Made by a program: the position numbers and the translations under genes. The notes beneath the pieces were generated by a model. The model was not told the origin of the DNA. It saw only the letters and a program-made list of their open reading frames with translations, and made no database searches. From a virus (lineage: Duplodnaviria; Caudoviricetes), in the IMG/VR virus record IMGVR_UViG_3300021426_000066: DNA of 64,000 nt. One strand, 5' to 3'. Shown here piece by piece: positions 2,363 through 48,424 of this stretch; within the stretch, counting starts at the first letter, position 1; the number at the start of each line of letters is the position of its first letter.

Positions 2363-5300
2363 TTAAGCCATAGCTTCAATTCTTTGCTTTAGTTGCTCAT
2401 TCTCTTGCGAGAGTTGCTCGACTTGCTTGATAAGCTTTTGAATTTGCTTTTCATGGTCTTGTTCAACAGCAAGCATAGCGGGAACAATATGACGAATATT
2501 CCAGTTTTCGACTCGATTATTATCATATATGGCTGCGATAGGATAATATTGTGCTACATCTTCAGCTATTAAACCAGGTACGTCTAACCCTTCGTAGCAG
2601 TCCCCCTCCACCAGGTATCCTTCATTATATTTAAAAGATACAACTGGAATATCTAATACTTTTTGATAGTCCGTCAGAGGCTGAATGTCATGCTTATAGC
2701 GTTTTGATGAATTCGCTGCTGCCGTCACTCTTCCAGAGGTACTAATAAATAAATTACCTGCTCCACCAGAAGTGGTACTAGATGGGGCAATCGTCGGAAG
2801 ATAAAGATATCCGTTACCATTCTGTGTATAAATAACCCATTTTCCAAGCGTGTTAGAATATAATCCAAAGTTCCCCGTAGACGAATCAGAAGCATACAAG
2901 CTTCCTTCATGATGAGAGTTCTTGACTTTAAAATATACACCCGTACCTGCTGAGGTGGAAATTACGGCATTTCCCGCAGAAACAGTAAGCCATGTAGTAT
3001 TACTGGGCTGTAGATATATACTTCCTCTAGATGCAATAGATACCGTATTTCCTTCAAGATGCGTTGAGCCAATTTGATCTTTAAATGATCCATATCCAAA
3101 TAAAATTTCATTATTTGCATTTACACCACAGAGTATTCTGTTTGTATTATCGTTAAATTTTGAATATATATACTTGGCATTAGTATCTATTGCTATATGA
3201 CCGCCAGTATATAATTCATCAGATACCTTTAACCGACCACTGGCTGTCTCTTTGATATATGAAGTGACAGACGCAGATTTATTATAATGAAAGCTGATTG
3301 CACCACCACTGGTAGCAGAACTCGCGAGATGTACTTCTCCATTAGTTGCTAACCAACATCCAAAATGATCTGTGTCATTATATGCTGTGCGGCCTCCCGT
3401 ACCAAGCCCACCAGTAACATATGTATTGGCTGTGACATAAAGGGCATGATTAACTGAAACATCATTATATAATTTTAAAGTGCCTGAAGCAGATTCATGG
3501 ATATATGAAGTTGCAGTTGTTGCTTGGTTGTAATAGAAATATATATAAGATCCACCATTGGCTGGCCCAACCAAAAATGCATTGCCTGCATTGTTTAGCC
3601 AAACTCCTGTTTTACCATCAGCGGCTTGGGTTTTACCATTTGTTCCAACACCAGTTGTGACAGTAACTCTGCCACCTACGTCAAGATTACCAGTTTCTAT
3701 AGTATAATTCCCATTATTAAACGTAACACCATTTAATTTAGTCTTATCACTTGCAGACATTATACCTGCGACAGATGCCGTAGCTTCTGGCATAACAAAT
3801 TCCCTAATTGCTCCATTATGATACCAATAGGTAGGAAGAGTGTTGGAGAATTCAAATTGTTCTGTAGTTCTAGCATAGCCAATCTGTTTGTATATGAATC
3901 CATCAGCGCTAGTGGGCAGCTCTTGCGTCCACCATGTATCTGCTAAATAAAAAAGACCTGTTGCAATATCATAAGTGCCTTTAATATACAAAGGTTGGTA
4001 TGGTGTTAATGTTGCTCCACAGTTACTACTGTATCTAAAGTTGAGAGCGATTCCATGAGAAGTAACAATATTATCACCATTCTGTGCGCCTGATGCATAA
4101 TTAGAGCTAGAAGCAAGATAATAAATCTTACCTAATTGGAAACCTGTCGTGTTTCTAGTTTTAGTCGTATCAGTACCATGATCCGTTGTGAAGCTCTGCC
4201 AGTTACCATCCGCATCCTGCATGACTAAACTATACTGCTTCATACCATTAGTACCTGCTGTGAGTCTGGTATAGTAATCTCTGACGGTATAAGTGTCGTT
4301 ATAGTCGCCTGTCTCTTGAAGCCCTTGATTAGCACCATCAAAACTCGTTAAACCAGCATAGTTTGTAGAACCAGTCCCAGGTACATCGGCATACTTCAAA
4401 GCATCTTCAAACATCGTTACAGTACAGTTTTCTGCCTCAAGGATGTCTACTCGAACAGTACGAGGATATGAAGATGAGACAGAATTTGCACTATATAGGA
4501 AACTAATACCAAGTAAGTGACCATAAGCTGATGCACCTACTTCGGTTGCTCTATACAAGTTATGATAGTAGAACGTCCTATAACTCGTACTTAAATGAGA
4601 GTTAAAGATGCTGTACGCAACATAACTATTTTCATAACCGTATATTTCAACATCAGCATAGCCATGATAATAGTTTTGATTAGGAACATCTACTTTAATT
4701 CTGTATTTGACTTTCCATACGCCATGGTATTGATCAGGTTTTACTGAAGCAAAATAAAAAGACGTACTCTCCATATTATTTGCTGACCCATACAAACCAG
4801 CATAAGTCTTTGTTCCACCACCAATAGGAGAGATATCACTATAATCTAAAACAATGTTATCGGTTAATGCCTTGCCATTGATTTGTCTGGTATTGGGAAC
4901 AGGAGTGTAGCCAAGTGCCGTTGTTACATTGGATGAAGTGAGTTCGCCTCTAATAGTGGCAGATGATTTATTCTCAACATTGCTTAAGCCAATATCAGTT
5001 TTGGTAACATTGTGAGGGTTACCAGAGGTTAACTGAGAGTGGTCATATGCTATCTTGCCACGATCTCCACGATATGCTGAGGAGGAATTTTCACCCAGAG
5101 CCAATGAAGCAGAGATTTCTACATAAGCCGATCCAGACCAACGATAAGTTTTATTGGTAGATAAGTCTACATATATCTTACTTGATTCTCCTGTGAGTTG
5201 ATTTGTATGAGCAGACTCTTTGTACATCTTATTGTTATAGTAATACGCTTCAATTACATCATCAACATAACTGGGCAATTGAGAGGAGAGGATAAGACCA

Positions 5301-20111: not shown

Positions 20112-20385
20112 CTTATTGTTACTCTTTTTAAAATAAAAAGGGATGAGTCATTTCTGCTCATCTCTGCATTTTCATTGTTAGATTATATATGCAGAACAGA
20201 TCATACCATTACCCTATTAGGGTACTCCCGTACATATAAATGTCACCATTTATATTGTGATCGTTACGGACTATTTAGTTTCATCTAAATAAGTTGCCCA
20301 CGGTATTGCCTATCTCTAGGTGTCCACCGTTTTGAGAGAGTTTGCTGTATATATTGCTATATAGAGGGGCATAACTTTTCAGTTC
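20112..20385 (-). ncRNA. Group I self-splicing intron (IA-like, 274 nt, no ORF)
   Basis: Exon ends in U (…CAG GGU) pairing with IGS GCCC; terminal G (…AAUAAG); P2 UAUAUA-GCAA-UAUAUA; P3 ACUCUC/GGGAGU; P4 ACGGUG/UACCGU; P5 CCUA-GAGA-UAGG; P6 GGGC/GUCC; P7 GAUCA/UGAUC; P7.1 with GUGA loop; P8 ACCCU/AGGGU; removal restores frame (QG|TTS). Confidence 0.93.
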
Positions 20386-32550: not shown

Positions 32551-35500
32551 TTAATTGTATTTAAACTTACTCAACGAATTTCTACCCATAGCTGCTCCAA
32601 GAGTCATTTCCTGTAATGCATTCTGGAACTGGGTATCTGCAACAAGCTGAGATTTGAATTTATCATAATTCTCAACACCATACAGATTGATAACAAACTG
32701 AACATCACCCATAGACTGGTTGACATTCTGGTTCATATTCTGAACAATAGGTTGAGACATAGCGCTATTGATCATATCAGGAATATTCATTTGAGCAAGT
32801 TTCCAAAGATTTTCACTCATAGCATTAGTAAATACCTTGTCACCTTTACCAAGAGGAGTAAGCATAGCACCATCAGATTTGCGATAGATGACTTCTTGTC
32901 CCTTGTCTTGAGTATAAGCAAGTTGATCCTTTTTAATGTAGGAAGAGCCAGAAGCATAAGTCTTCGCAGTTCCTTTTGCTGTCGAGGGGGCAAAAGCAGA
33001 GGCCAAAGGATTTAAAGCTTGATAAACCGTTGAATTCTTAGATGCTGTAGATGCTTTGGTCAATTTAGCCAATTCAGCAAATAATTTATTTAATTTAACT
33101 TGTAAATCGTTGTATTGTTTGTCAAGATCTGCTTTTTGTGATGCATTCTTTACCACGCGATATTTGTCTCTATTGACTCGCATTTGATTTCGGATATCCT
33201 CAATTTGATCCAATAACGCCCGCTCTTTAGCTTTGTCCACTTGTGTAGTATTTTTAGAGTTTGTGGATATAACTCCTTTATTTTGTTTTGTTATCGCTGC
33301 AAAAACAGCGTCTGCTTGTCGCTGAGTGTCTTCAGTCAACTCTGCTTTGTCTGCTTTCGGTCTAGCGGGACGATCAGCTCCATCCTTGGCTTTTCTTAAG
33401 TCGCTAACTTTTGTAACAACAGCATCAAAACTACCTTTAAGACTCTTATTAACAAAATCCTTTTGAACTTGTGTTAAACTATCATAATATTGTTTCAACT
33501 CATTAACGGAAGCTTCATCATCTAATGTAATTTGATTTTGATTCAGCTTATTAACTAAACCTTCAGCCCTTGTTTCAAACTTTGTAGCAGCTTCTCTATC
33601 AGGTTGTTGAGCAATATATGTTTGCAACTGTTTAAAGATATCGTTCAATAAAGAAGCAGTAGTTGTTTGATCACCATTAAGAGTTAACGCAGAAGTCAGC
33701 GCACTAGATAAGCTATCAACCTTTCCACCAAGTCCGCTCTCTAAGCTATTTAAAGTTTGTACGGTAGACTTAGCAAATTCAGTACTACCAAAGTTATTGA
33801 TATTACCTGCCAAAACTTGAGCCGCTTCTTTAATAACAGCATCACGATCCTTCATATGAGACTCAATCCATTCTTGGAAATTGTTAGATAAATCATCTAA
33901 CATCTTCTGTGAATCAGAAAGGTATTTATCATATTGCTGATCAGATTGATTCTGTCTAGCTTCTTTTAAATCAGCACGAAGTTTCTGGACTCTTGCAACA
34001 GCTTCTTCGGAAGTATTACCTTCAAAAGCGGCTAATTGCTTCTCAAGATTGGTAATATTTTTACTTGACTCAGAAATCTGTTTCTGATAGTCATAAGCAT
34101 CTTTTTCAGCATTCTTTAATTCTTTATACTTATCAATGGTCTTATTGAGATAGGAGAGTTGTGATTCATAAGCTTGTCTAACTAAGTCAATAATAGCCTG
34201 TTTCTCAGCTTCAGTAGCCTCAACGCTTTCCCAATATGCATCGGTCAGTTGTTCAAGTCTATCTCTTACATCTTTATCTGCAATATCATCTTGTTGAGAT
34301 TCGATTCGCTTTTGTAATGCACCAATTTCTTCCGCATACTTTTGCGTTTCCGCAATGAGAGAAGAGTAATTGGCAGTATGCAGGTCTAATGATGCAAGTC
34401 CATATTCAGTAATTTGACCTCTATTATCATCATCAAATAATGTTTGATTTGCAAGGATATTCTGATAATGTTGAATTTCTGCATTAAATCTCTTTACAGC
34501 AGCCATGCCATCATCAAATTCAGTCCATTTTAATTGACGTTTCGCCTTGGATAATTCAATAATGGATTCTGTCAGAGACTCAATATCATTGGTGAAGCCA
34601 TTAATTTCTGCTAATGAAGATGCATAGTCTGGAGTACCAGGTACTAAATCACCACTCTCAACTCGTGCATTGAATTTATCAATAGCTTTTGCACGATTGC
34701 TAAGCAATAACTCCATATTACGATTAGACATTTGAAGTTGCTCATCATAATCAGACTCTTGTGCATAATAACCTTGAGTTCCTGCTAAACTGATATGATT
34801 CTTAGCACGAGTAATACGTTGCTCATTACTATCTGTTGTATTATATGCAAAACGATTTTTATCTGTTTGATGTAAAGAGTAGGTACTTGCACCATTGCCT
34901 AATCTGGATTGTGCATTATAATCAGCTTCATCACGGAAGTTCTTTACTTCTTCGTATGCTCTGGCAGAATTTTCTTTCTTCTGCGCTTCCATAGCCATAT
35001 CATAAGCATATTGAGCGGATTTTTCAGCTTCGAGCCATTCGTTATATCTAATGCATTGTTCCATAAAATTATCAGAAATCTTGCCTTTAGAATAGAGATC
35101 TGCAAGTTTATCCATATTAGGAATGGCTTGTCCATCATGTGCTGCCTGAAGTGCCTTGTTAACTTCGGTTTCGTCTTTTCCAGACAGGCCCATACTCTTA
35201 AGATTAGTTATACTGATTGTATTCCCAAGATCCTTGCGTTGGTTCATCCAGTATGTAAGCCGCTTTTGAGCATTAGCCGTAATATTCCTTTGAATACCAA
35301 TTTCTTGATCCAATAAGGTATTCTTTTCCACAGCAGTGGTACGATTTTCCTTCTGAGACTCTTTTAAAGAAATATCATTGTTGTACGCTTGTTCAATATT
35401 CTCATAAAGAGAATTAGTGTTATTCGTTCTGCTTGCCGCATTTTCAGCATAAGCTGCAACTTCCTCTAAACGGGCAGCTTGCAAATTTGCAACTGTCTGA

Positions 35501-38500
35501 TTATAGGCGATTAATCTAGCAGCTGCCTCTGGAGAAGTCTTTTGGATTTTAGAAATAGTATCCTCAGGAATCAACTGACCTTTATCAACATATTTCTTGA
35601 TATCTTTTAAATACGTCTTAGAAAGTTTATCAACAGCCTTTTTCAGATTCTTTTTATTCTTACCCTTAGCAGTTTTGTTGATATAAGACTTGGCATCTTT
35701 AAAAGCTCTCTTAGCCTGTTTACCATATTTGTCTCTCTGACTGACAAGCATTTTAGTTTCATTACCATATGCTTTATCAGCAATATCTAGATCTGCATTA
35801 GAGGCATTGACTAACATATTGCTATAAGAAGCGTCTGTATCATTAGTCGCTTGGAATCCACCAGTCTTAATTTGGGTAAGAGTCTTAGATCTTTCAATAC
35901 GAGCATCACGTTCTGCGTCACGAACTTCTTTAAGAGACTTGACCTGTTCACGAAGCTGTTCGTTAAGTTCTTCCATAGCTTTTTCAGCTTCATGACCCTT
36001 TTCGTACCATTCTTTGTAAAGGTTAATGGCTTCGGATAAACGTGCTACACCTTTTTCTGATAATTTGTGACCGCTTAAGTCCTTCTTGTTTTTAATTAAT
36101 TGGTCGATATCTTTCTGACTTTTGATTTCACCATTTTGAACAAGAGCTTTGTATTTCTTTTCTTCGCCTTTGGTAATCAGTCCTTTAGACCTTGCAGTTT
36201 TCATTGCTTTATTAGCAAAACTATAATAATACTGACTACCACGGTCTTCGTTACCAATCTGTTTATAAATCTCAGAAATAGCATTGTGATAATTAGCGGC
36301 TGCTATGTCGTAAAGATCTTTTGTCTTCTTTGCGGTATCCTCATAAAAATTCAAAATACCAGTACTCGCAGCATCAGCGGCTTTGTCAAGGGCTGCTTCA
36401 GCTTTGGAAGAGTAGGATTCAATCTTATCTGTAGTGCGAGAAATTTTTACTTCAATCCAATCAAAGATATTTTCAAATAGCTTTTTGAATTTCTCAAGTT
36501 TTTTGTCGGTGTCGTCTTTTTTGTTGTTCTTCTTACTATCACCCTTTTTGCCAGGAGTGGTTTTCTTTGATGTCGAAGAATCATCATCTGTAGAACCAGT
36601 TTTTACTCTCTTTTTTCGTTTAACTGGGCCGTCAGCAAAGGCCGTACCACCTGTTCCACCAGCAAAGGCCATTTGTCCACGAGAATTAATATGACCATTT
36701 TTAAGAAGTTCCTCTGTTTGTTTATGGTTAAAAATTATATCGCCTTTACGAACTTCATTAAATTCTGCTCCATCCTGTCCTAATAATTCCCAACGAGAAC
36801 CACGAACACGCAATTCGGGACCAAGCTCACCAGTAAGAGCCGGTTCAGTTTTCTTCGCCCCAATATCACCACGAGCATCAGCACGACCAAATATTGAAAA
36901 CTTAGCAGTACCTTGTGAAAAATGAGCCGTTCCTTGGTACTTCGGACCTGTTCCGCCACTATTGTTAAGATTGGGAACATTACCCTCTTGTGTAATTTTG
37001 ATTTTTACTTCTTTATCTTCAAGTAAATTAATTTTATCTTTTAAAGAATCAACATGCGTGGACGCTGTTGAAATATACCCACTTAAAGCTATAAATCCCA
37101 AACTGCCGACAGAGGGGGTAGAAGAGATCTGGCTACCTAAATTGCTGGCTTTCCCGGTTACAGTATCAATATTACCACCTAAAGCTTCATAAGCTTGCTG
37201 AACCGGGCCAAGCACTGCATCATCGACCTTTAATGCTTGGTTTAATGAATCTCCACTCTGTGCTATAGCTGTATTAAATGCTTCCATCGATCCTTCTTCA
37301 AGGCCCAAAGAAACTTTTATTTCAGGATGTTGATTTTGGTAATCTAAAACCGCTTGAGCAGCTTGATCAGCAGATGATTGGGCTTCTTCAACTTCTTGAT
37401 GACTTCCAGTACCATTATTGGATCTATGTTTGGCTATTTTATATGCATCAGATGCTTGTTGAGCAAGTTGTATTAATTGAACATATTCTGCTGTAGTATC
37501 ATCCAACTGAGAAGTATCTACTTTCATAATAGCGGGCTGTTCAAGTTCGACCTTTTTAGCATAAATAAAATCTATTTCAGCCAATACTGCTTTATATGCT
37601 TCGGGGTCAATTTCAACACCCATTTCAATCATTTCAGATTTTTGCTGTTCTAATTGACCTAAGGTTTGATCAGCTTGCCAAGCGGTAGCTATAGTATCTG
37701 GTATTTCTACTTGAGTTTGTGTACCAAAACTGTTCGCCTGTTCGTTTAGCTGAGCTAATTCTTCAGGAGTTTTAAAGTCTTTGGCGAGAATTTCTAATTG
37801 CGCAAGTTGTACTTTTGCATTTTTTATCAATTCTCCCCATGTTTTCCATTCTTCGCTACCTTTTGTTAATTTTTCTTGGTACTCTTCCATATAAGCGATA
37901 TTTTCTTTTAACGCTTGTGGGTCATTCGTATAAGTACCACCTTGTTCAGGATTACCCCAGCCTGCATCAGCCATGCTAGATAACATTTCTTGCACAAGGG
38001 CTGACCCCATTCCTTCATATCCATATTTGTTCTTGGTATATTCAGACATTATATGGGTAAACAATTCATCATTATATACTTCAAAACCACCATCACCGGT
38101 CAGCCAATCATTTAAACCATATTCTTTCAAAGCGTTCAAAGCGTCTGTAAAGAAATTATCTATGCCAACCGTATCTTCAGTTAGATACCTTTTTGCCATT
38201 TTTTGGACATTTTCATAAAAACTGTCTTCCATAATGGCATCAGAATTTTCAACACCAGTTAATAAAGTGGCATAAGATTGGTAATCATCTTTTCCAACCC
38301 AACCTTTTTTATGAAGATCTTCAAATCCGCTCCAACCACCAGTAATACTATTATAAACATCACTTGGATTAGCAGATTGAGAAGCTTCATTCCATGCGTT
38401 CAAAGCATTTACTGTTGATAATAATTCGTCACGATATCTCGCCCAAGATGAGATATTATCTTGAATTGCAGCTTGACTTTCAGATAAAGATACAATTTGA

Positions 38501-41208
38501 TTATTAATAGCTTGTGCTGCTTCATCTGTCGCATAATCTTGATCCCGTAAACGTTGATTGAGTCTTTCAATTTCGGCTTCATTATTAAGATACTGTTCAA
38601 ATAGTTCTTTTTGTTCATCAGTTAACTGCTTGGCAGCACTTATTTTTTCTTGTCTTTGTAATTCTTTAGCTTTATCTGTATTTAGTTGAATGCCAGTAGC
38701 CGTTTCAATTAAAGCATCTTTATAAGCTGAATTAGAAGCAATCAATGCATCAAGAGAATCTTTTGAGATATAACCTTGCTTCTCTTGTTCGGAGACCGCT
38801 GTATTAAAAGCAGACATGGATGTAGATATGTTAGATATCGATTTTTCTATAGCATTTTTAAATTCATTAAATCTTTCCTCTGCACCCTGAACAGAATCAT
38901 CAATTATTAAACCTAATTCACCAAACAAAGCTATGGCTTCTTCAATATTATCAACTAATCCCCAGTCTATAGCCATATTAGATAAACCACGAATAGCTTG
39001 TAACGCTGGATCAGTTACTGCCTCATTCCAATCGATATTCGTTAATTCACTAACGGTTTTATCTTTAATTCCAGATACAATATCACCAAATTGTTTTTCG
39101 ATATGCTCGGGAAACATTTGTTTCAAAAAATCGTTAATATCAAATTGAAGTATATCTGTAACGGAAGCATCCCTTAACCAAGATGTATAATCTATACCTA
39201 AACCACGTAATTGTTGTCCGTAATTTTGTGTAATATTATGAACAGATTGTTTAATTAATTCACCATTAGCAGTAATATCTAATGATTCTCTTAATAAATC
39301 AATTGTATCTTGATCAAGATGAAATGTAGAAGCTAATTGTTGCAGATATTCATTCATAGTATCTGAATATTCTGTTTGCTTTATTTTTGTGTAATCAGGA
39401 GTTAGCAAATTTTGCATGATTTCACCAATATCATTATCTTTAGTAAAATCAGTGCGTCGCAATGTTGCAAACATAGATTCAAATTGTAAATCACTAATTC
39501 CAACATTAGAAGCTATCGTTTCCAAATTACCCAACGCAGCTACTAATTCTTCATTACCTTCATCGATTGAACCAACAAGGAGGCTATAATTATCTCTCAA
39601 CGAGGTTTGAGCTTTCCCAATTTGTTCGCCAACTTTTTCTAAATCAGCCAGTATTTGTTGAGCTTCAGAATCACTATCAAGAGAGTATTTATACATACCC
39701 AAATAGTTACCCATATCATCATACATAGGTGTTTCTTCACCTTTGGCTTCTTTAGCTTGAAGTTGTTTATATCTATCTTGTAATTCTTTACGCTTGTTAA
39801 CTAATTCTTTATAAGATTCTTGACCACCCGCTGTAAGTGTTTCACCAGTTTCTTTTTGAATATTTTCTCTAGCTTGGTCCCTTAACGCTTCTTGTTTAGC
39901 AAGAGATAATTCTTTGTATTTATCAATTTGTGCTTGTATTTGATCATTCGTTGCTATAATAGCCTGACCCTCTGCATCATATCCCACAATCAATTCAGGA
40001 CTTTGATCAGCAATTTGTTGACGAATCTTAAAATACTCATCTGAACCGACTTCAGCTTCTTTATATTGATCTAAAAGAGATTGTAACGAAGAAGCATTAT
40101 CATCATAATCTGATTTCTCGTCTTTAATTGCTTGAACACGCTTGGCATCTTGCTCAATCATCCTCTCATTTCGCTTAATAATTGCATCGGTAGAAGTAGC
40201 TATTTCATCATAAATTTTTTTAACTGCATATATAGCCAACGCGGCAGCAGCAATGAGCGCAAAAGTTTTTACGAGTTGAAGATTCTGATTAACCACATTA
40301 CCAGCAGCTACTTCTAAACTGGTCATATCTTTTATAGCTTCATCGGCAAAACCCGCTTTAGGAAATAATTTCATCATTGCATCTTGAGTCGCCGCGAAAT
40401 TACCACCATTAAGCGCAGATATATTACTAAGCATTGAATATGCTTGCAATCCCCTTAAGCTAGGGATGCTTAACCCTCCCCCAGCTTTTAGCATTCCAAA
40501 CAGACCACCGCCAAGACCTTTAAGACCCATAACACCGAATGTTGTAGCTACTAATGCTTTTACAGGTCCAATATTATCTGCTAATTCGTTAAATGCTTCA
40601 GCTAAGTTTATTACAAAATCTAAAATACCTTTGGTCGCATCAGAATTATATAAATCGATCCAGAAAGAATCCATCTCAGTACGAATCTTTTGCGTTTTTC
40701 CAGCAATAGACTCTTCATATTTTTCCTGATTCTCTAAAGCACTTCCTTGGCTATTTGTAGCTTGTTCAGCTAATTGCATTGAATCAGTCCATGCCATAAG
40801 GATATTCTTAAACTTTGATGTCTGTCTTGTCGCCGCAATGTTAAATGCGATATTCGCCTGCTGTGCATCACTTAAACCATCCCATTTTTCACGAAGCTGA
40901 GTAAGGATGGTGATCATATCGTTCATTTCGCCACTTGGCTTATATACCTGTACACCCACAGCAGCTAACGATTCAGACGCTTTAGAAACTGTAGAGCTAT
41001 CAATTTCTTCGGCATATTGAGGCATTTTATTAACCTTAGAGATACGAGTAATGATAGTTTTCATTGCATTACCAATTGAACTACCATCTTCACGAGTTCT
41101 CTCTGCAACCTTAGCCGAAATAGCAGCTAATTGCTCAAATGACATGCCAGCATCATGAGCAACCTGACCTGTAGCTGTAACTGCTTGTGTAATAACACCG
41201 ATACCTTT
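32551..41208 (-). CDS. Exon 2 of tape measure protein (TP901-family core; spliced length 3638 aa)
   Basis: Frame open from 41208 (KGIGVITQAV…DAG MSFEQL); 'TREDGSSIGNAMKTIITRI' TMP core; long coiled coils; two 'GELGPEL…KGD.IF'-type motifs. Confidence 0.9.
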   Translation of the reverse strand, partial: KGIGVITQAVTATGQVAHDAGMSFEQLAAISAKVAERTREDGSSIGNAMKTIITRISKVNKMPQYAEEIDSSTVSKASESLAAVGVQVYKPSGEMNDMITILTQLREKWDGLSDAQQANIAFNIAATRQTSKFKNILMAWTDSMQLAEQATNSQGSALENQEKYEESIAGKTQKIRTEMDSFWIDLYNSDATKGILDFVINLAEAFNELADNIGPVKALVATTFGVMGLKGLGGGLFGMLKAGGGLSIPSLRGLQAYSMLSNISALNGGNFAATQDAMMKLFPKAGFADEAIKDMTSLEVAAGNVVNQNLQLVKTFALIAAAALAIYAVKKIYDEIATSTDAIIKRNERMIEQDAKRVQAIKDEKSDYDDNASSLQSLLDQYKEAEVGSDEYFKIRQQIADQSPELIVGYDAEGQAIIATNDQIQAQIDKYKELSLAKQEALRDQARENIQKETGETLTAGGQESYKELVNKRKELQDRYKQLQAKEAKGEETPMYDDMGNYLGMYKYSLDSDSEAQQILADLEKVGEQIGKAQTSLRDNYSLLVGSIDEGNEELVAALGNLETIASNVGISDLQFESMFATLRRTDFTKDNDIGEIMQNLLTPDYTKIKQTEYSDTMNEYLQQLASTFHLDQDTIDLLRESLDITANGELIKQSVHNITQNYGQQLRGLGIDYTSWLRDASVTDILQFDINDFLKQMFPEHIEKQFGDIVSGIKDKTVSELTNIDWNEAVTDPALQAIRGLSNMAIDWGLVDNIEEAIALFGELGLIIDDSVQGAEERFNEFKNAIEKSISNISTSMSAFNTAVSEQEKQGYISKDSLDALIASNSAYKDALIETATGIQLNTDKAKELQRQEKISAAKQLTDEQKELFEQYLNNEAEIERLNQRLRDQDYATDEAAQAINNQIVSLSESQAAIQDNISSWARYRDELLSTVNALNAWNEASQSANPSDVYNSITGGWSGFEDLHKKGWVGKDDYQSYATLLTGVENSDAIMEDSFYENVQKMAKRYLTEDTVGIDNFFTDALNALKEYGLNDWLTGDGGFEVYNDELFTHIMSEYTKNKYGYEGMGSALVQEMLSSMADAGWGNPEQGGTYTNDPQALKENIAYMEEYQEKLTKGSEEWKTWGELIKNAKVQLAQLEILAKDFKTPEELAQLNEQANSFGTQTQVEIPDTIATAWQADQTLGQLEQQKSEMIEMGVEIDPEAYKAVLAEIDFIYAKKVELEQPAIMKVDTSQLDDTTAEYVQLIQLAQQASDAYKIAKHRSNNGTGSHQEVEEAQSSADQAAQAVLDYQNQHPEIKVSLGLEEGSMEAFNTAIAQSGDSLNQALKVDDAVLGPVQQAYEALGGNIDTVTGKASNLGSQISSTPSVGSLGFIALSGYISTASTHVDSLKDKINLLEDKEVKIKITQEGNVPNLNNSGGTGPKYQGTAHFSQGTAKFSIFGRADARGDIGAKKTEPALTGELGPELRVRGSRWELLGQDGAEFNEVRKGDIIFNHKQTEELLKNGHINSRGQMAFAGGTGGTAFADGPVKRKKRVKTGSTDDDSSTSKKTTPGKKGDSKKNNKKDDTDKKLEKFKKLFENIFDWIEVKISRTTDKIESYSSKAEAALDKAADAASTGILNFYEDTAKKTKDLYDIAAANYHNAISEIYKQIGNEDRGSQYYYSFANKAMKTARSKGLITKGEEKKYKALVQNGEIKSQKDIDQLIKNKKDLSGHKLSEKGVARLSEAINLYKEWYEKGHEAEKAMEELNEQLREQVKSLKEVRDAERDARIERSKTLTQIKTGGFQATNDTDASYSNMLVNASNADLDIADKAYGNETKMLVSQRDKYGKQAKRAFKDAKSYINKTAKGKNKKNLKKAVDKLSKTYLKDIKKYVDKGQLIPEDTISKIQKTSPEAAARLIAYNQTVANLQAARLEEVAAYAENAASRTNNTNSLYENIEQAYNNDISLKESQKENRTTAVEKNTLLDQEIGIQRNITANAQKRLTYWMNQRKDLGNTISITNLKSMGLSGKDETEVNKALQAAHDGQAIPNMDKLADLYSKGKISDNFMEQCIRYNEWLEAEKSAQYAYDMAMEAQKKENSARAYEEVKNFRDEADYNAQSRLGNGASTYSLHQTDKNRFAYNTTDSNEQRITRAKNHISLAGTQGYYAQESDYDEQLQMSNRNMELLLSNRAKAIDKFNARVESGDLVPGTPDYASSLAEINGFTNDIESLTESIIELSKAKRQLKWTEFDDGMAAVKRFNAEIQHYQNILANQTLFDDDNRGQITEYGLASLDLHTANYSSLIAETQKYAEEIGALQKRIESQQDDIADKDVRDRLEQLTDAYWESVEATEAEKQAIIDLVRQAYESQLSYLNKTIDKYKELKNAEKDAYDYQKQISESSKNITNLEKQLAAFEGNTSEEAVARVQKLRADLKEARQNQSDQQYDKYLSDSQKMLDDLSNNFQEWIESHMKDRDAVIKEAAQVLAGNINNFGSTEFAKSTVQTLNSLESGLGGKVDSLSSALTSALTLNGDQTTTASLLNDIFKQLQTYIAQQPDREAATKFETRAEGLVNKLNQNQITLDDEASVNELKQYYDSLTQVQKDFVNKSLKGSFDAVVTKVSDLRKAKDGADRPARPKADKAELTEDTQRQADAVFAAITKQNKGVISTNSKNTTQVDKAKERALLDQIEDIRNQMRVNRDKYRVVKNASQKADLDKQYNDLQVKLNKLFAELAKLTKASTASKNSTVYQALNPLASAFAPSTAKGTAKTYASGSSYIKKDQLAYTQDKGQEVIYRKSDGAMLTPLGKGDKVFTNAMSENLWKLAQMNIPDMINSAMSQPIVQNMNQNVNQSMGDVQFVINLYGVENYDKFKSQLVADTQFQNALQEMTLGAAMGRNSLSKFKYN

Positions 41209-41581
41209 CGATATGTTAACTTATAGGCTTTTTATCCTATAATTCTGGAAGTTTCCTTCATACTACTATCGGCTAAATAATAGATACGTCTGTCAATTCA
41301 GACCAGTCCAGCATATATTATCACCCTCGTTTAACGTTAGGACAATAGGAGACTAACCCTATTGTAAGTATTCTATAAACACTTGTGCAAACCACTCTTG
41401 CGGACATTTTATTCTGTTTATTAAAAACAGGTTCAATCCGTATGCGTTACGGTGCTATAAGTTTTTTAATCCTCATAGTTACCTCGGTGTTAACTTGTTA
41501 ATTTATTCATAAATTAATTTAGTCTTCACCGATTTTGGTTTGTTTTCAATAAATCATTTCTGATTTATGCTCCTAATTAAA
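41209..41581 (-). ncRNA. Group I self-splicing intron (IA-like, 373 nt, no ORF)
   Basis: Exon ends CUCU pairing with IGS GGAG (U·G at splice site); terminal G (…AUAUCG); P2 AUAAAUCA-GAAA-UGAUUUAU; P3 CAAACC/GGUUUG; P4 UCGGUG/CACCGA; P6 GGU/ACC; P7 GCAUA/UAUGC; removal restores frame (MDYS|KGI). Confidence 0.92.
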
Positions 41582-43840
41582 AGAGTAGTCCATAGCGACA
41601 TTCGCAGAAATATCATTTAATACGTCAACAACATGCATTGATACATCAGCAGCATCTGCTTCAGAATCTTTGAGCATATCAAACTGTTGAATAATACCCT
41701 GAACTTCATCAGCAGCAGTAGAAGCATCAACACCAGACAGGTTACTCAGAATAACTGTAGGTTTTGCTAATTGTTGAATCTCTTCAGCGGAAGTGTTCAT
41801 ATTAGCGTAAATCTTATAGACATCTTCAGCATTGGCTACCGACATCGAAAGATCTTTAGCCATATCAATGGCAGATTTTCCAAGTGCATCCAATTCTTTT
41901 GAAGTCATATTCATTGTATAACTAATATTAGTTAACGTTGAATCATACTCCTTAAACGTAGACATACCCGCTGTTAATTCGGAACGAAGTTTCATAACAG
42001 CAGAGTAGCCCATTATTAGTTGAGGTAATTGATGAATCATGCCACCAATGCTCTTAGAAAATCCAGTTAAAAAAGCATTCTGCCCTTGACTTACAGTAGA
42101 AGACATTCTCCATGCATTGGATAATTTCTCTACTTGACCTGTAAGTTGAGTGATCTGTCCAGATGTAGTTTTATAAGTACGAGTCACTTTAGTCTGATCT
42201 GCATTCCATTTTTCTGTTACTAAAGCTCCAAGTTGAGCAGCTTTAGCGTACTTATCCATTTGAGCAGTCATGTCAGCCGCATTTTTAATCTGTCCTTGGT
42301 CTAATAGATAGCCTTTGTTGTTTTGAATTTTTGTTTCATCTTGAATCTGTCCAAGTATCTTTAATTGATTTTGTAACTTAGAATTATATTCCTCTACCTT
42401 GTCTGGATTATGCATATTTTGCTCAAGCAATTGCATAGTTCTGACAGTATCCGTTAATTGTTGTGTCCATGCCCCAGAACGTTGTTCGTCTCCGAAAGAT
42501 TGAAGTTTGGTCCTCGCTTTATCAATGATAGAAGAGACTTTTTCAAAATCAACAATAGCTTGTTTAGCTTTAAGTTCTGCTTCAACATTCGCATGATTAT
42601 CTTTAACCTGCTTTTGAACAATGGCTGCATCAGCAGCATATTCAGGTGAGCCAGAATAAAATTTTAATTCTTCTTCCAACTCTGCTTTTCTTTGTTCCAA
42701 AGCTTGAAGAATAGGTGCTTTTGCTTTTTCTGCTGCTTGCCTTTCAGAAGCAGTCATGCTTTCGAAATCAGCTTTAATTTTAAGAATTTGAACATCTACT
42801 TTTTGAAGATCTTCAGATAAACCTTTAAAATCTGTATTATAAGAAACTGTTGATGGAGTTGCTTTTCCGTCTTCCCCTAACTTATATCCAACTCTCATTG
42901 TTTGATGAGGTTTGGTTTTATATGTTACAGATGATCGCTTATCAGATAAACGTTCTGTTTGATATATCGGAAGACCCTGATTGACCAAATCATTGACATA
43001 TTGCGCTTCTTCGTCTGACAACCTTTTTGTTTTTCCAGATGATTTTGTGCTATTCCTTTTCTTTAAATAATTCAAAGATAGATTTTTTTTTTCTAATTTT
43101 CCCCATAAACCATATTTAATATTATTTTGAATTACTTCGTCAGCAAACTTATCAAGTCCCCATTTCTCAACATCTCCACCAGTGTCGGTAATGTTTTTTA
43201 ATAAACTGTTTACATAAGTTTCTAATCCCTTCGGTCCCTCTGCTTTTAATATTGTATTCATAGCAGAATACAAATTATTAATTGAAACCACAGAACTTTG
43301 TACTTTTTGATGGACTTCATTAATAACTTTTTTTATACCCGGAATTTGTTTTTCTAAAGAGTCAAATGAAAAATCTTGCCCTTTCAAAATTCTATAAGAA
43401 TTAAAAGTTTCCATTATTTCAGAACGTAAAGCTGGATCTGCTTTTTTCCCCGTTCTAGCATTTGATAAATAATCAGAAACCTGTCCTTTTAAATCTTCAA
43501 ATAATGCATCTGTATCAGTAAAACGCCCCATTCTTTCAATAGTTAGCCTTGATGGGGTTCCGTTTGGTAAAGCTTTCTTCTTAATATAATCCTTAGCCTG
43601 ATCTACCGTTAAATCTTTTCCTGCTTTATACAGCTTTTGAACAGATTCATAAGTCTTTTCTATATCTTTTCTAGCTTTGTCGCCGCCTGAAGATTTAATG
43701 TTTACGTCAACCTCTGTGGTGACTTTTTTATTCTCTAGAAGATCTTTAACTATTCCATTCGCAGATTTGGAAGCACCTGAAACCAGATCGCCAATTTCTT
43801 TTTCTCCCATTAGTTTCCCGCCAGTAAATGTTTTCCCCAT
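41582..43840 (-). CDS. Exon 1 of tape measure protein
   Basis: AAAGGAGG RBS; ends with the first half of the TP901 TMP core ('EYDSTLTNISYTM…VVDVLNDISAN'); 753 codons to the splice site. Confidence 0.88.
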
Positions 43841-44486: not shown

Positions 44487-45656
44487 TTAGTATCTAATGT
44501 CTGTATGCAAATGCTCATTAATCCAGTCAATTATCTGCTTATAATTAAGCCCCCCCTCATCAGTAGGACGCATTATGTAATTATATTGCTGGGGATGTGT
44601 TTTAGCCATTAATGTAAAACGGCTATCTTCAGGAGATTCCAATTGACACCCAAAGCCACAAAACATACATCCAGTTCTTTTATATCCCGTCGTTTTTAAT
44701 TCTGGATAATCCTCTTCTAAAACGCATATATCCAAATTATTATAGTTATAATTAATTTGGTCATTATTGCTAACTATATTACCATATAATGGACATAGCG
44801 ATAAATTAAATATTTTAGCATATAATAATACATCTTGTTCTAACCAAAATGCCATAGGATTACTAATAGGGTTTTTAAGTTCAAATCCGTTACATCCATG
44901 CTGTAACCATTGCGTTGTTCTAAGTTTGCTTTCACACGCCATCTGTGCAGTCATTGGCATCCTACCTGTGTCTTTTTGATATTTATGCGTAATATCTTTC
45001 TTCATAATTCTACAACAAGAATCTCCGATCTCAAAAGGAGCATCTAAAAAATATTGCCATTGCACTTTCATAAAAGGGGCTCTTTCTTTGGCTGGAATGT
45101 TTATTCCAATGGTTCCATCTCTTCTAATCATTCCTAAAACCATTGCCAAATATCTTCGTCCTTTTTCTCCATCTGGTCGATTCATTACAATTTTTTGCAA
45201 CTCTTTAGAATCAATTAGCCTAACTATTGTCCACCCTTGACTAAGATACTTTTTTAAATCATCATCTTCCTCCATTAAAAACCGCAAATATTTTCTAGCG
45301 CCTCTAATTTTTTCACTGGATTCTTTGCTAATAAAAGGATAACCAAAACGATTAATAACCTGTTTAAAAGTCATTTCAGGCTTAAGCCAATCAATATTGT
45401 CAAACTTACCTACAAAATCTCTAATTTCTGGAAATTCTAATCCAGTATCACAAAAGACACCTTTTACGGTTGGATACATTTTTCTTACAATATCTAACAA
45501 AACGGTGCTATCTTTCCCGCCACTAAAAGCTACATATACTCCATCTACTCCGTACTCATTAACCCATTCTCGAATCCTCTGTTGTGTTAAGGCAATTTTT
45601 ACTTTTAATGGAGCGGATTGAAGAGAGCGTAGTTCCCATCTTTCTCTTTTACTCAT
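44487..45656 (-). CDS. PAPS-reductase-family (adenine-nucleotide alpha hydrolase) Fe-S protein
   Basis: 'AFSGGKDS' PP-loop, 'DTGLEFPE', 'CC' pair, 'RTGCMFC'; likely start ATG 45656 after AGGAGG; no C-terminal ECGLH. Confidence 0.85.
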   Translation of the reverse strand: MSKRERWELRSLQSAPLKVKIALTQQRIREWVNEYGVDGVYVAFSGGKDSTVLLDIVRKMYPTVKGVFCDTGLEFPEIRDFVGKFDNIDWLKPEMTFKQVINRFGYPFISKESSEKIRGARKYLRFLMEEDDDLKKYLSQGWTIVRLIDSKELQKIVMNRPDGEKGRRYLAMVLGMIRRDGTIGINIPAKERAPFMKVQWQYFLDAPFEIGDSCCRIMKKDITHKYQKDTGRMPMTAQMACESKLRTTQWLQHGCNGFELKNPISNPMAFWLEQDVLLYAKIFNLSLCPLYGNIVSNNDQINYNYNNLDICVLEEDYPELKTTGYKRTGCMFCGFGCQLESPEDSRFTLMAKTHPQQYNYIMRPTDEGGLNYKQIIDWINEHLHTDIRY

Positions 45657-45669
45657 AAATCCTCCTAAC

Positions 45670-45759
45670 AAAAAAAACATGACTCAATTAGACCCACAAA
45701 CAAAATGACAAATAAAATAATTATTAATAAAGAGGTATTTAGCGTCTAATCGAGCCATG
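45670..45759 (-). promoter_or_regulatory. Large-loop terminator/attenuator in the leader of the PAPS-reductase-like gene
   Basis: 16-bp stem 45744-45759/45678-45693 with two G·U pairs on minus-strand RNA, 50-nt loop, U8 tract, then RBS. Confidence 0.6.
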
Positions 45760-46877: not shown

Positions 46878-47852
46878 CTATCTAACGTAACTTCCTGGTT
46901 TTTCCCAGTTATCTAAATAATCAAATTCATCTTGTAACGTATAATAAAAATTGGAATCTATCAGAATTAATTTATCATTTTCTTCTGAAAATTCTTTAGC
47001 AAAACGAGTAAGACGAATTTTACTTTTTTCATCCATCCAGCCTTTTACCTCAATCCACTTATCAAAATCAGGCAAATAAAAATCAGGTTGATAACTCATT
47101 ACCCCATTATCAACCTGAATAAAATAAAAACGTTTAAATTCGTATCTCCATTCAATTCCTAACTCATTTAATATTCTGGCAATATTTGCTTCCCAAGATG
47201 AACGGAAATATTGATAAAGATCTGGACGATATCCTCCTTTGCAGCGTGAATAAGCGTTGACAGTGGTATTATAATCAACCCCTTTTTTAAGCCGTGTCTC
47301 TTTAGCCTTCTTGACACGATCTTGTTTTTGTTGAAGTGTTAATGAGCGACTATATTGTAATTGTCTCTTAGAAATAGCATTTTTTGCTTTTTGAGTATGC
47401 TTATGCCCTAAGAAACCTTGTGGATGCTCATGTTTTTTATGCCATTCTTTTGACTGTGCGGATAAAATATTTCGTAATTTGTCGCCTTCTTCCCCTACAT
47501 ATCTTTTACTATTTGACTCACTTATCTTTTGTTTTCTTTCATCTGTAAAAGAACGTTTACTATTGCTTAATCCTATTTTTTGTGCATAGCGACTAATAGA
47601 GGTTTTTTGTCTTCCCATATTTTTCGCCAATTTACCTATATCTATTTCATCTGGATGAGCCAAATAATAAGATCTAATCACTTCTTTTTCTTCATCTGTA
47701 AAAGGTCTAAACCTTTGATTTAATCCCATGCGCTCTCGTTTCCCACGAATAGACCCAAGAGATTTATTCAAATAATGACTTAACTCTTTTAATGACATAT
47801 CTTCGGAATGTTCTAATAAAAATGATTCTTCTTCTTGCGTCCATACACTCAT
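46878..47852 (-). CDS. Free-standing homing-endonuclease-like protein: HTH repeats, NUMOD3-like motifs, PD-(D/E)XK nuclease
   Basis: 'WTQEEESFL' and 'FTDEEKEVI' repeats; 'GHKHTQKAKNAIS'; 'FRSSWEANIAR…YQPDFYLP…IEVKG'. Confidence 0.75.
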   Translation of the reverse strand: MSVWTQEEESFLLEHSEDMSLKELSHYLNKSLGSIRGKRERMGLNQRFRPFTDEEKEVIRSYYLAHPDEIDIGKLAKNMGRQKTSISRYAQKIGLSNSKRSFTDERKQKISESNSKRYVGEEGDKLRNILSAQSKEWHKKHEHPQGFLGHKHTQKAKNAISKRQLQYSRSLTLQQKQDRVKKAKETRLKKGVDYNTTVNAYSRCKGGYRPDLYQYFRSSWEANIARILNELGIEWRYEFKRFYFIQVDNGVMSYQPDFYLPDFDKWIEVKGWMDEKSKIRLTRFAKEFSEENDKLILIDSNFYYTLQDEFDYLDNWEKPGSYVR

Positions 47853-47854
47853 GC

Positions 47855-48424
47855 TTAAATCTCCTTATATTTCATACAAAGATAATCTTCGGTAACATCA
47901 TCCTGAATCCTGCCCTCCAGAGCTTTCCGCAGAATAGAGCAGTTGTTCTTATATCTTTTACACGTTTCACATACATTCTCAAATTCGTCAGCTTGTTCCT
48001 GAGAGTCAAAGATCCCGACGAAATCAACAGGATATATGGTTAATTCGATTCTGGGATTTTTATTATCATACATGACTTTAAGAATACGGTTACAAATCAT
48101 ATTGTCATCTAACCACACACAACCTGCGTTAGTAATTGAATCTGAAATTACCTTGTCATAATTGGCGCAATCCATATCTATTCTTGGAAAATAAAAAACC
48201 GCATCAACATAATAATGCTGATACGGATTATCACTCATAACCCAGCCTTGTTCTTTAACCTGCTGCTTAACGTATTCTGTAAATTCTTTTTGAAATTTCT
48301 TAGCCTCCGCCGTCTTATATGACATTGCCGTTGGCTTTCCATTTTTATAAACTACTCGGTATGCGAGATAGTGGTTGACTGATATAAAATCATGGACTGT
48401 GAGCTTTAATGTTTGTTTCTCCAT
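47855..48424 (-). CDS. rusA: RusA-family Holliday junction resolvase with C-terminal Cys cluster
   Basis: 'SVNHY', 'DCANYDKVISDSI…DDNMI…NPRIELTI'; C-terminal CxxC…C…C. Confidence 0.8.
   Translation of the reverse strand: MEKQTLKLTVHDFISVNHYLAYRVVYKNGKPTAMSYKTAEAKKFQKEFTEYVKQQVKEQGWVMSDNPYQHYYVDAVFYFPRIDMDCANYDKVISDSITNAGCVWLDDNMICNRILKVMYDNKNPRIELTIYPVDFVGIFDSQEQADEFENVCETCKRYKNNCSILRKALEGRIQDDVTEDYLCMKYKEI

Follow-up and report, generated by a model that had tools for sequence, protein, structure and literature searches.

A probable self-splicing group I intron of the JCL1032 type within the PhageMin_Tail domain of a phage tape measure gene

Introns in phage tape measure genes have been documented since 2004–2008, in phage JCL1032 and in Bacillus cereus group prophages (PMC2504315). 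The introns of JCL1032, a Lactobacillus phage, are cited in a later paper as proven self-splicing group I introns (Riipinen and Alatossava 2004, Arch Virol 149:2013; cited in PMC6669764), and the GenBank record of this phage gives both its terminase and its tape measure gene as a joined CDS. In the Bacillus cereus group prophages, IA1/IA2 introns named TMP-IVS1, -IVS2 and -IVS3 occupy three tape measure sites (Tourasse and Kolsto 2008, PMC2504315); most contain no endonuclease gene, and their P1 is adapted to each site (PMC2504315). The tape measure (YomI-homologue) gene of Clostridium phage c-st and the tape measure genes of Staphylococcus phages 6ec and PT1-1 carry introns as well, that of 6ec with an HNH endonuclease ORF in its P5a loop.

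Here we describe an intron in a 64,000-nt stretch of DNA (the window) from a virus of the Caudoviricetes, IMG/VR record IMGVR_UViG_3300021426_000066. The data indicate that a 373-nt element of the window is very probably a functional self-splicing group I intron that carries no endonuclease gene and interrupts the PhageMin_Tail coding region of a tape measure gene whose product has 3638 aa. It is a JCL1032-type phage intron, a class already documented, and the window copy adds a new site.

The split gene lies on the minus strand. Exon 1 (41582..43840, 753 codons) ends in ...GACTACTCT at 41582; the intron, an ORF-less group I element of subgroup IA (IA1-like), extends from 41581 to 41209, beginning with UUUAAUUAGGAG and ending in ...AUAUCG; and exon 2 (32551..41208, 2885 codons plus stop), whose first residues are KGIGVITQAV, begins with AAAGGTATC at 41208. 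In the list of open reading frames, the uninterrupted frame from 43840 meets a stop at 41573 and a second long frame runs from 41208 to 32551 with its first ATG at 41145; stops close all frames within 41581..41209. Excision joins the 753 codons of 43840..41582 to the 2885 codons of 41208..32554, giving 3638 aa with the junction ...NVAMDYS|KGIGVITQAV... and a predicted peptide ...NVAMDYSKGIGVITQAV... across it. Thus, the ORFs 43840..41573 and 41145..32551 are one gene for a 3638-aa tape measure protein. The longest stop-to-stop frame inside the 373 nt has 51 codons, and no homing endonuclease, as would mark a mobile group I intron, is encoded within the intron. An in-frame UAG occupies intron nucleotides 7–9 (41575..41573), overlapping G9 of the guide sequence. 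A preliminary description of this DNA had reported a 373-nt ORF-less intron at 41209-41581, an in-frame UAG two codons into it that overlaps the guide, and the 3638-aa product with its junction; coordinates, length and lack of an ORF all check out, the UAG reads as described, and the codon sums agree, with 41 uninterrupted homologues collinear across the junction.

The intron cuts a recognisable domain. Pfam PF10145 (PhageMin_Tail, 201 positions) matches with profile positions 2–90 in the last 100 aa of exon 1 (E 8e-6), which hold the first half of the domain, and with positions 96–197 at residues 6–122 of exon 2 (E 7e-16), so that the profile is interrupted at about position 90–96. By tblastn, exon 2 matches annotated tape measure proteins. 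A tblastn search with the last 200 aa of exon 1 against phages returned no match, and a BLASTP comparison of the end of exon 1 with the Basilisk tape measure protein was not significant; exon 1 homology was established by the Pfam profile and by viral-contig homologues. The 3638-aa protein (gene 32551-43840, minus strand) is very long, with PhageMin_Tail as its sole recognised Pfam domain and no Pfam domain recognised in the ~3400 other residues.

Viral contigs provided 41 loci with an intron-less homologue, about 60–66% identical around the junction. In all 41, the match to exon 1 stops at its last codon and the match to exon 2 begins at the next nucleotide in the same frame, and the query spliced in silico aligns to the 41 homologues as a single ungapped segment. 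Because the exon matches end and start at adjacent nucleotides, in frame, in 41 homologues, the intron boundaries are exact. The empty site reads GATTACGCT|AAAGGTATC (…IDYA|KGIKII…), and the window reads GACTACTCT|AAAGGTATC (…MDYS|KGIGVI…). Intron occurrence is sporadic among related phages. The guide GGAG fits its own exon end CUCU (Ser codon UCU) and not the CGCU of the intron-less relatives, which argues for a working, co-adapted P1. A megablast search with 20 kb around the gene found nothing among GenBank phages, which indicates that the phage lacks a close cultured relative there. Among the loci compared, the only other intron at the same 3′ site (…UAUCG|AAAGGUAUA) is at L101:2218-2590 (minus strand), its core about 75% identical to that of the window intron. 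After the conserved GACUAC, the L101 5′ exon continues GGC AAA UUU AUU UUA...; a splice collinear with the homologues would come after C, not U, and with an alternative U.G-compatible P1 (UUAUU/GAUGA) the product would be longer by three residues (KFI) and the P1 loop would contain a hairpin.

The intron RNA has a fold z-score of -4.6, which with the covariance-model match given below puts the element well outside chance expectation, and its helices follow the order P1, P2, P3, P4, P5/5a, P4′, P6/6a, P7, P7.1/7.1a, P3′, P8, P7′ and P9, all on the minus strand. In P1 (41570..41586), exon CUCU (41585..41582) pairs with the GGAG of AGGAG (41574..41570), the junction being fixed by the homologues; U41582.G9 forms the U.G wobble at the 5′ splice site and the terminal base of the intron is a G at 41209. 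P1 contains only four exon pairs, and P10 is weak, with about two. The P2 hairpin AUAAAUCA-GAAA-UGAUUUAU (41549..41568), drawn from the sequence and the minimum-energy fold, has no conserved counterpart in the relatives, whose P1/P2 differ according to target site. The 5′ strand of P3, CAAACC (41537..41542), pairs with GGUUUG (41393..41388), and all six pairs show compensatory changes. P4-P5-P5a (41484..41532) is formed by UCGGUG/CACCGA, GACU/AGUU and UUAAUUUA/UAAAUUAA, with covariation in P4. P6/P6a (41451..41483) consists of GGU/ACC and CUAUGAG/CUUAUAG with a conserved UUAAAA loop, and all seven P6a pairs covary. The 5′ strand of P7, A(C)GCAUA (41441..41447), pairs with UAUGCU (41310..41315), just before which lies the J8/7 stretch AUAAUA. 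Between P7 and P3′, P7.1 (CGGAU/GUCCG) and the nested P7.1a (CUGUUU/AAACAG) occupy 41401..41440, and all of their pairs covary. The 3′ strand of P3, GGUUUG (41388..41393), was placed by covariation. CGGAUUG, directly after P7, was considered as this strand and rejected, since covariation assigns it to P7.1 and the true P3′, GGUUUG, lies 47 nt further on.

The 3′ half of the element is enlarged. P8 (41322..41387) is a four-way junction with a CAC/GUG base, the variable hairpins P8a and P8b, and a conserved P8c (CCUAACGUUAAACGAGG). The P9 domain (41209..41309) comprises P9 (GGUCUG/CAGACG), P9a, a GAAA-capped P9.1, P9.2 and the 3′ tail with the terminal G at 41209; the P9.2 loop, AUAAAAAG, is class-wide and its stem covaries by eye across relatives. 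P8 thus carries three extra hairpins and P9 two. This layout is common to c-st, L101, L204 and L165, and by eye the P8 stems covary among them (CAC/GUG, UAC/GUA, CGC/GCG); the evidence for the four-way junction and the P9 extension is by eye, one arm of the 4-sequence MAFFT alignment having been shifted by a column. On this covariation we take the extra P8 and P9 helices to be real and to define a sub-lineage. The preliminary description had noted them as a feature of this intron; they are real, yet shared with Clostridium phage c-st, L101, L204 and L165.

According to Michel and Westhof in 1990, subgroup IA is reportedly distinguished by an extra P7.1, with P7.1a or P7.2, between the P7 5′ and P3 3′ strands. 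IA2 introns contain two hairpins, P7.1 and P7.2 (PMC4227781). The window intron has its P7.1 insert between P7 and P3′, and the presence of one P7.1 arm, not two hairpins, points to IA1 rather than IA2. The full IA-like core that had been proposed for the element is upheld, in that it combines a group I topology with an IA-type P7.1 insert, both backed by covariation.

Helix arms were read at fixed offsets from conserved single-stranded motifs, with no structure-fitted alignment involved. Read in this way in 47 relatives, the helices form a P3-P8/P4-P6 core in the canonical order, with the P7 pseudoknot across P3. P3 makes 6/6 pairs wherever its 5′ arm can be located in the relatives, in about a dozen different sequences, and the helix directly after the P7 5′ strand makes 5/5 pairs in 47/47 distinct relatives, in many sequences. 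In 13 relatives, 98.3% of cells are paired and 31 of the 44 pairs show compensatory changes (slid controls, 33–44%). In 96 distinct sequences the corresponding values are 92.2% and 40 of 44 (slid controls, 33–43%), from an alignment that was fitted to our covariance model R1 and hence leans towards the structure. Compensatory support extends to P3, P4, P6, the P7 pseudoknot, P8 and the P7.1/P7.1a insert. The element also has the guanosine-binding G-C beside a bulge in P7, G137-C271 with C136 bulged, as well as the U.G wobble at its 5′ site (CUCU|...GGAG) and the 3′ terminal G at 41209.

R1 was built from the 13 relatives as seed, with the window and its closest relative, L101, left out. It matches the window at 41542..41305 with 136 bits (E 7e-31) over model positions 1–192 of 192, and this full-length match places the intron in the JCL1032-type phage class; the P8 region appears in the match as a 60-nt insert where the family has about 19. 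By contrast, Rfam RF00028 gave no match at its gathering score in the whole window, nor at E ≤ 10 in 40800-42000. Thus, the covariance-model alignment that the preliminary description had put forward as a check succeeds end to end with R1, while RF00028 stays silent. RF00028 finds the JCL1032 tape measure intron at 59 bits, which links the R1 class to the curated family, and misses the JCL1032 terminase intron even at E ≤ 1. Because this published intron, with the same P7 variant, is also missed, we read the silence of Rfam on the window intron as a sensitivity gap of the model that coincides with the P7 variant and is mainly explained by it. From these comparisons RF00028 appears to overlook the C-G P7 subclass systematically.

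Relatives found by blastn sit in the gaps of split tape measure genes. They include Streptococcus phages MissB1 and phiJH1301-1, Staphylococcus phages 6ec and PT1-1, Clostridium phages c-st and CB452P1, and Clostridioides phage LIBA6276. Pattern scans of viral contigs returned at least 93 stretches when the P7 bases were fixed and at least 113 with the 3′-terminal motif. Three viral contigs, L162, L139 and L135, contain three R1-class matches each, within about 1.5 kb in L162 and L139 and spread over about 6 kb in L135; the clusters in L162 and L139 suggest possible multi-intron genes. Multi-intron genes are known from phage Twort. In Staphylococcus phage PT1-1 (L002:2520-4500), three intron-like elements lie in about 2 kb just upstream of the annotated tape measure ORF, namely an R1-class intron at 2520-2731 and RF00028 matches at 3891-4116 (41.5 bits, below the gathering score) and 4166-4500. 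The PT1-1 record annotates many tiny 'hypothetical proteins' in this region.

The described systems resemble the window intron in different respects. The JCL1032 terminase-large-subunit intron (L102:2491-2644, R1 108 bits) has P7 G(A)GCAUA/UAUGCC, the same C-G variant as the window, and shares with it the P9.2 loop, the 3′ tail, the lack of an ORF and the failure of RF00028 to find it; its host gene (terminase) and its P1 target are different, its core is much smaller, and it has neither a four-way junction in P8 nor the additional P9 hairpins. The JCL1032 tape measure intron (R1 65 bits) is of the same R1 class and shares the host gene family and PF10145, but its P7, ACGACUA/UAGUCU, is canonical, unlike that of the window. 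The c-st intron (R1 32 bits), in the same gene family and domain, also has the four-way junction in P8 and the extended P9, and over the 3′ 129 nt its identity to the window intron is about 72%. The insertion point of both these tape measure introns, profile position 130/131, lies some 40 residues beyond that of the window intron. The 6ec and PT1-1 tape measure intron (R1 125–155 bits) is of the same class and is inserted at about PF10145 position 87, about four residues upstream of the window's site by eye; its P8 and P9 are simple, unlike those of the window. TMP-IVS1-3, which resemble the window intron in their published description, occur in other hosts and at other sites. The Tetrahymena/RF00028 core shares the helix order, the P7 bulge with its G-C pair, the U.G and the terminal G, and the window differs from it by the IA-type P7.1 insert. 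Along PF10145, the insertion sites are at about 87 (6ec), about 90–96 (window), about 100 (LIBA6276) and 130/131 (JCL1032 and c-st). By these positions the PhageMin_Tail domain is a recurrent intron target, and the window provides one more case, at a new site, of introns of this class settling in this conserved domain.

The P7 of the window has C136 bulged from A(C)GCAUA (41447..41441), G137-C271 as binding pair, C138-G270 as the pair next to it, and then A139-U269, with UAUGCU (41315..41310) as the partner strand. The preliminary description had given the same strands, with the G-C binding pair kept and the next pair C-G instead of the usual A-U, and they read as it stated. It had also called this P7 atypical and suggested that the variant could alter guanosine binding, and here our data point the other way. 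P7 frequencies were taken from a sample picked by its 3′-terminal motif (P9.2 loop plus tail), and so independently of P7, and aligned with R1. Among the matches listed, the guanosine-binding pair is G-C in 87/88; of the 86 listed matches that are readable at the next pair, 59 have C-G, 27 have A-U and none has G-C or U-A, and the following pair is A-U, G-C or C-G. The first and fourth pairs of P7 covary across the class. C-G is therefore the majority state among the matches listed (59 versus 27 A-U) and not an atypical one, and it occurs in the JCL1032 terminase intron too. The sequence offers no reason to expect impaired guanosine binding. By this tally, and because the variant is present in the published self-splicing JCL1032 terminase intron, we consider the C-G second pair to be compatible with splicing and typical of the class.

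In the Tetrahymena intron, the layers A261.A265-U310 and A306.C266-G309 lie under the bound G (PMC9943679). The window has C-G and A-U in place of A265-U310 and C266-G309, so these pocket layers would have different base pairs. Within the class, the second P7 pair alternates freely between C-G and A-U and the pair after it changes too. Viral metagenomes contain the C-G subclass in abundance, and the Rfam model appears not to see it. A wider proposal, which we regard as unlikely, is that most phage IA1-like introns would build layers two and three of the guanosine pocket in another way, and that P8c (CCUAACGUUAAACGAGG) may be an undescribed tertiary-contact module. If true, measurable effects on guanosine affinity or on the exchange of free G and terminal G would be expected.

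Two-step, guanosine-initiated splicing is the standard group I pathway. In the window intron, pairing of the guide GGAG with the exon end CUCU would place the U.G wobble at the 5′ splice site, free guanosine bound at P7 G137-C271 would attack that site, and the terminal G (41209) would then occupy the binding site as the exons are joined as ...MDYS|KGIG.... The homing endonuclease gene may have been lost, or may never have been present. Unspliced mRNA would be read to the stop two codons into the intron and would yield a 755-aa fragment with half of the domain. Since that stop would end translation of the unspliced message, the full-length tape measure protein, and hence normal tail assembly, would depend on splicing, which we infer for the window copy from its sequence features.

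An intron that has no endonuclease gene is immobile and free to decay, and the P1 and P10 of this one are short, which would be compatible with a decayed, non-splicing relic, tape measure function then coming from a 755-aa N-terminal piece and a C-terminal piece started at the ATG at 41145, much as many database records annotate such genes as two ORFs. We consider this very unlikely. The core helices are all intact, as are the G-binding pair, the U.G wobble and the terminal G, the match to R1 reaches 136 bits, and the guide matches its own exon UCU, not the GCU of relatives. Moreover, a start at 41145 would lose 21 conserved domain residues, no Shine-Dalgarno-like sequence lies ahead of this ATG, and the homologues are one continuous protein. 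The lack of an Rfam group I match might instead be taken to signal a structured non-intron RNA, for example a ribozyme of another class or a regulatory element, with a distinct gene on either side. That is extremely improbable: the helices follow the group I order and form its pseudoknot, introns that are annotated as spliced, including one that RF00028 recognises, are homologous to the element, and the flanking ORFs are halves of one Pfam domain, fused in 41 homologues.

Splicing could also serve as a control point, with partial splicing setting the ratio of 755-aa to full-length product or timing tail assembly. The early in-frame UAG, by which a defined truncated product would arise, fits such a role; however, stops just inside phage introns are usual, no evidence for regulation was found, and the absence of the intron from 41 related phages that make the same protein indicates that it is dispensable for function, making this role unlikely.

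RF00028 misses a class of phage group I introns that is both large and abundant. The class deviates in P7, within a stretch that ranks among the most conserved of the RF00028 consensus, and widespread mis-annotation of split phage structural genes as gene pairs is therefore likely. The practical value of the locus lies in gene annotation and in exposing this blind spot of RF00028.

Elsewhere in the window, a second intron at 20340..20193 (minus strand) is matched weakly by R1 (24.6 bits, E 5e-4). The 5′ strand of its P7 starts ACGA and thus has the canonical A at the second pair, and by these features it and the tape measure intron are distant relatives at most. The 324-aa ORF at 46878-47852 (minus strand) shows a sub-threshold match to Pfam Phage_endo_I (21 bits, cut-off 29), and the ORF immediately before it in transcription order, 47855-48424, clearly encodes a RusA resolvase; these matches link neither ORF to intron homing. 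A PAPS-reductase-type domain (PF01507, E 1e-14) is present in the 397-aa product of 44487-45680 (minus strand), which lies upstream of the tape measure gene with one 189-aa ORF between and is an unusual neighbour for a tail module.
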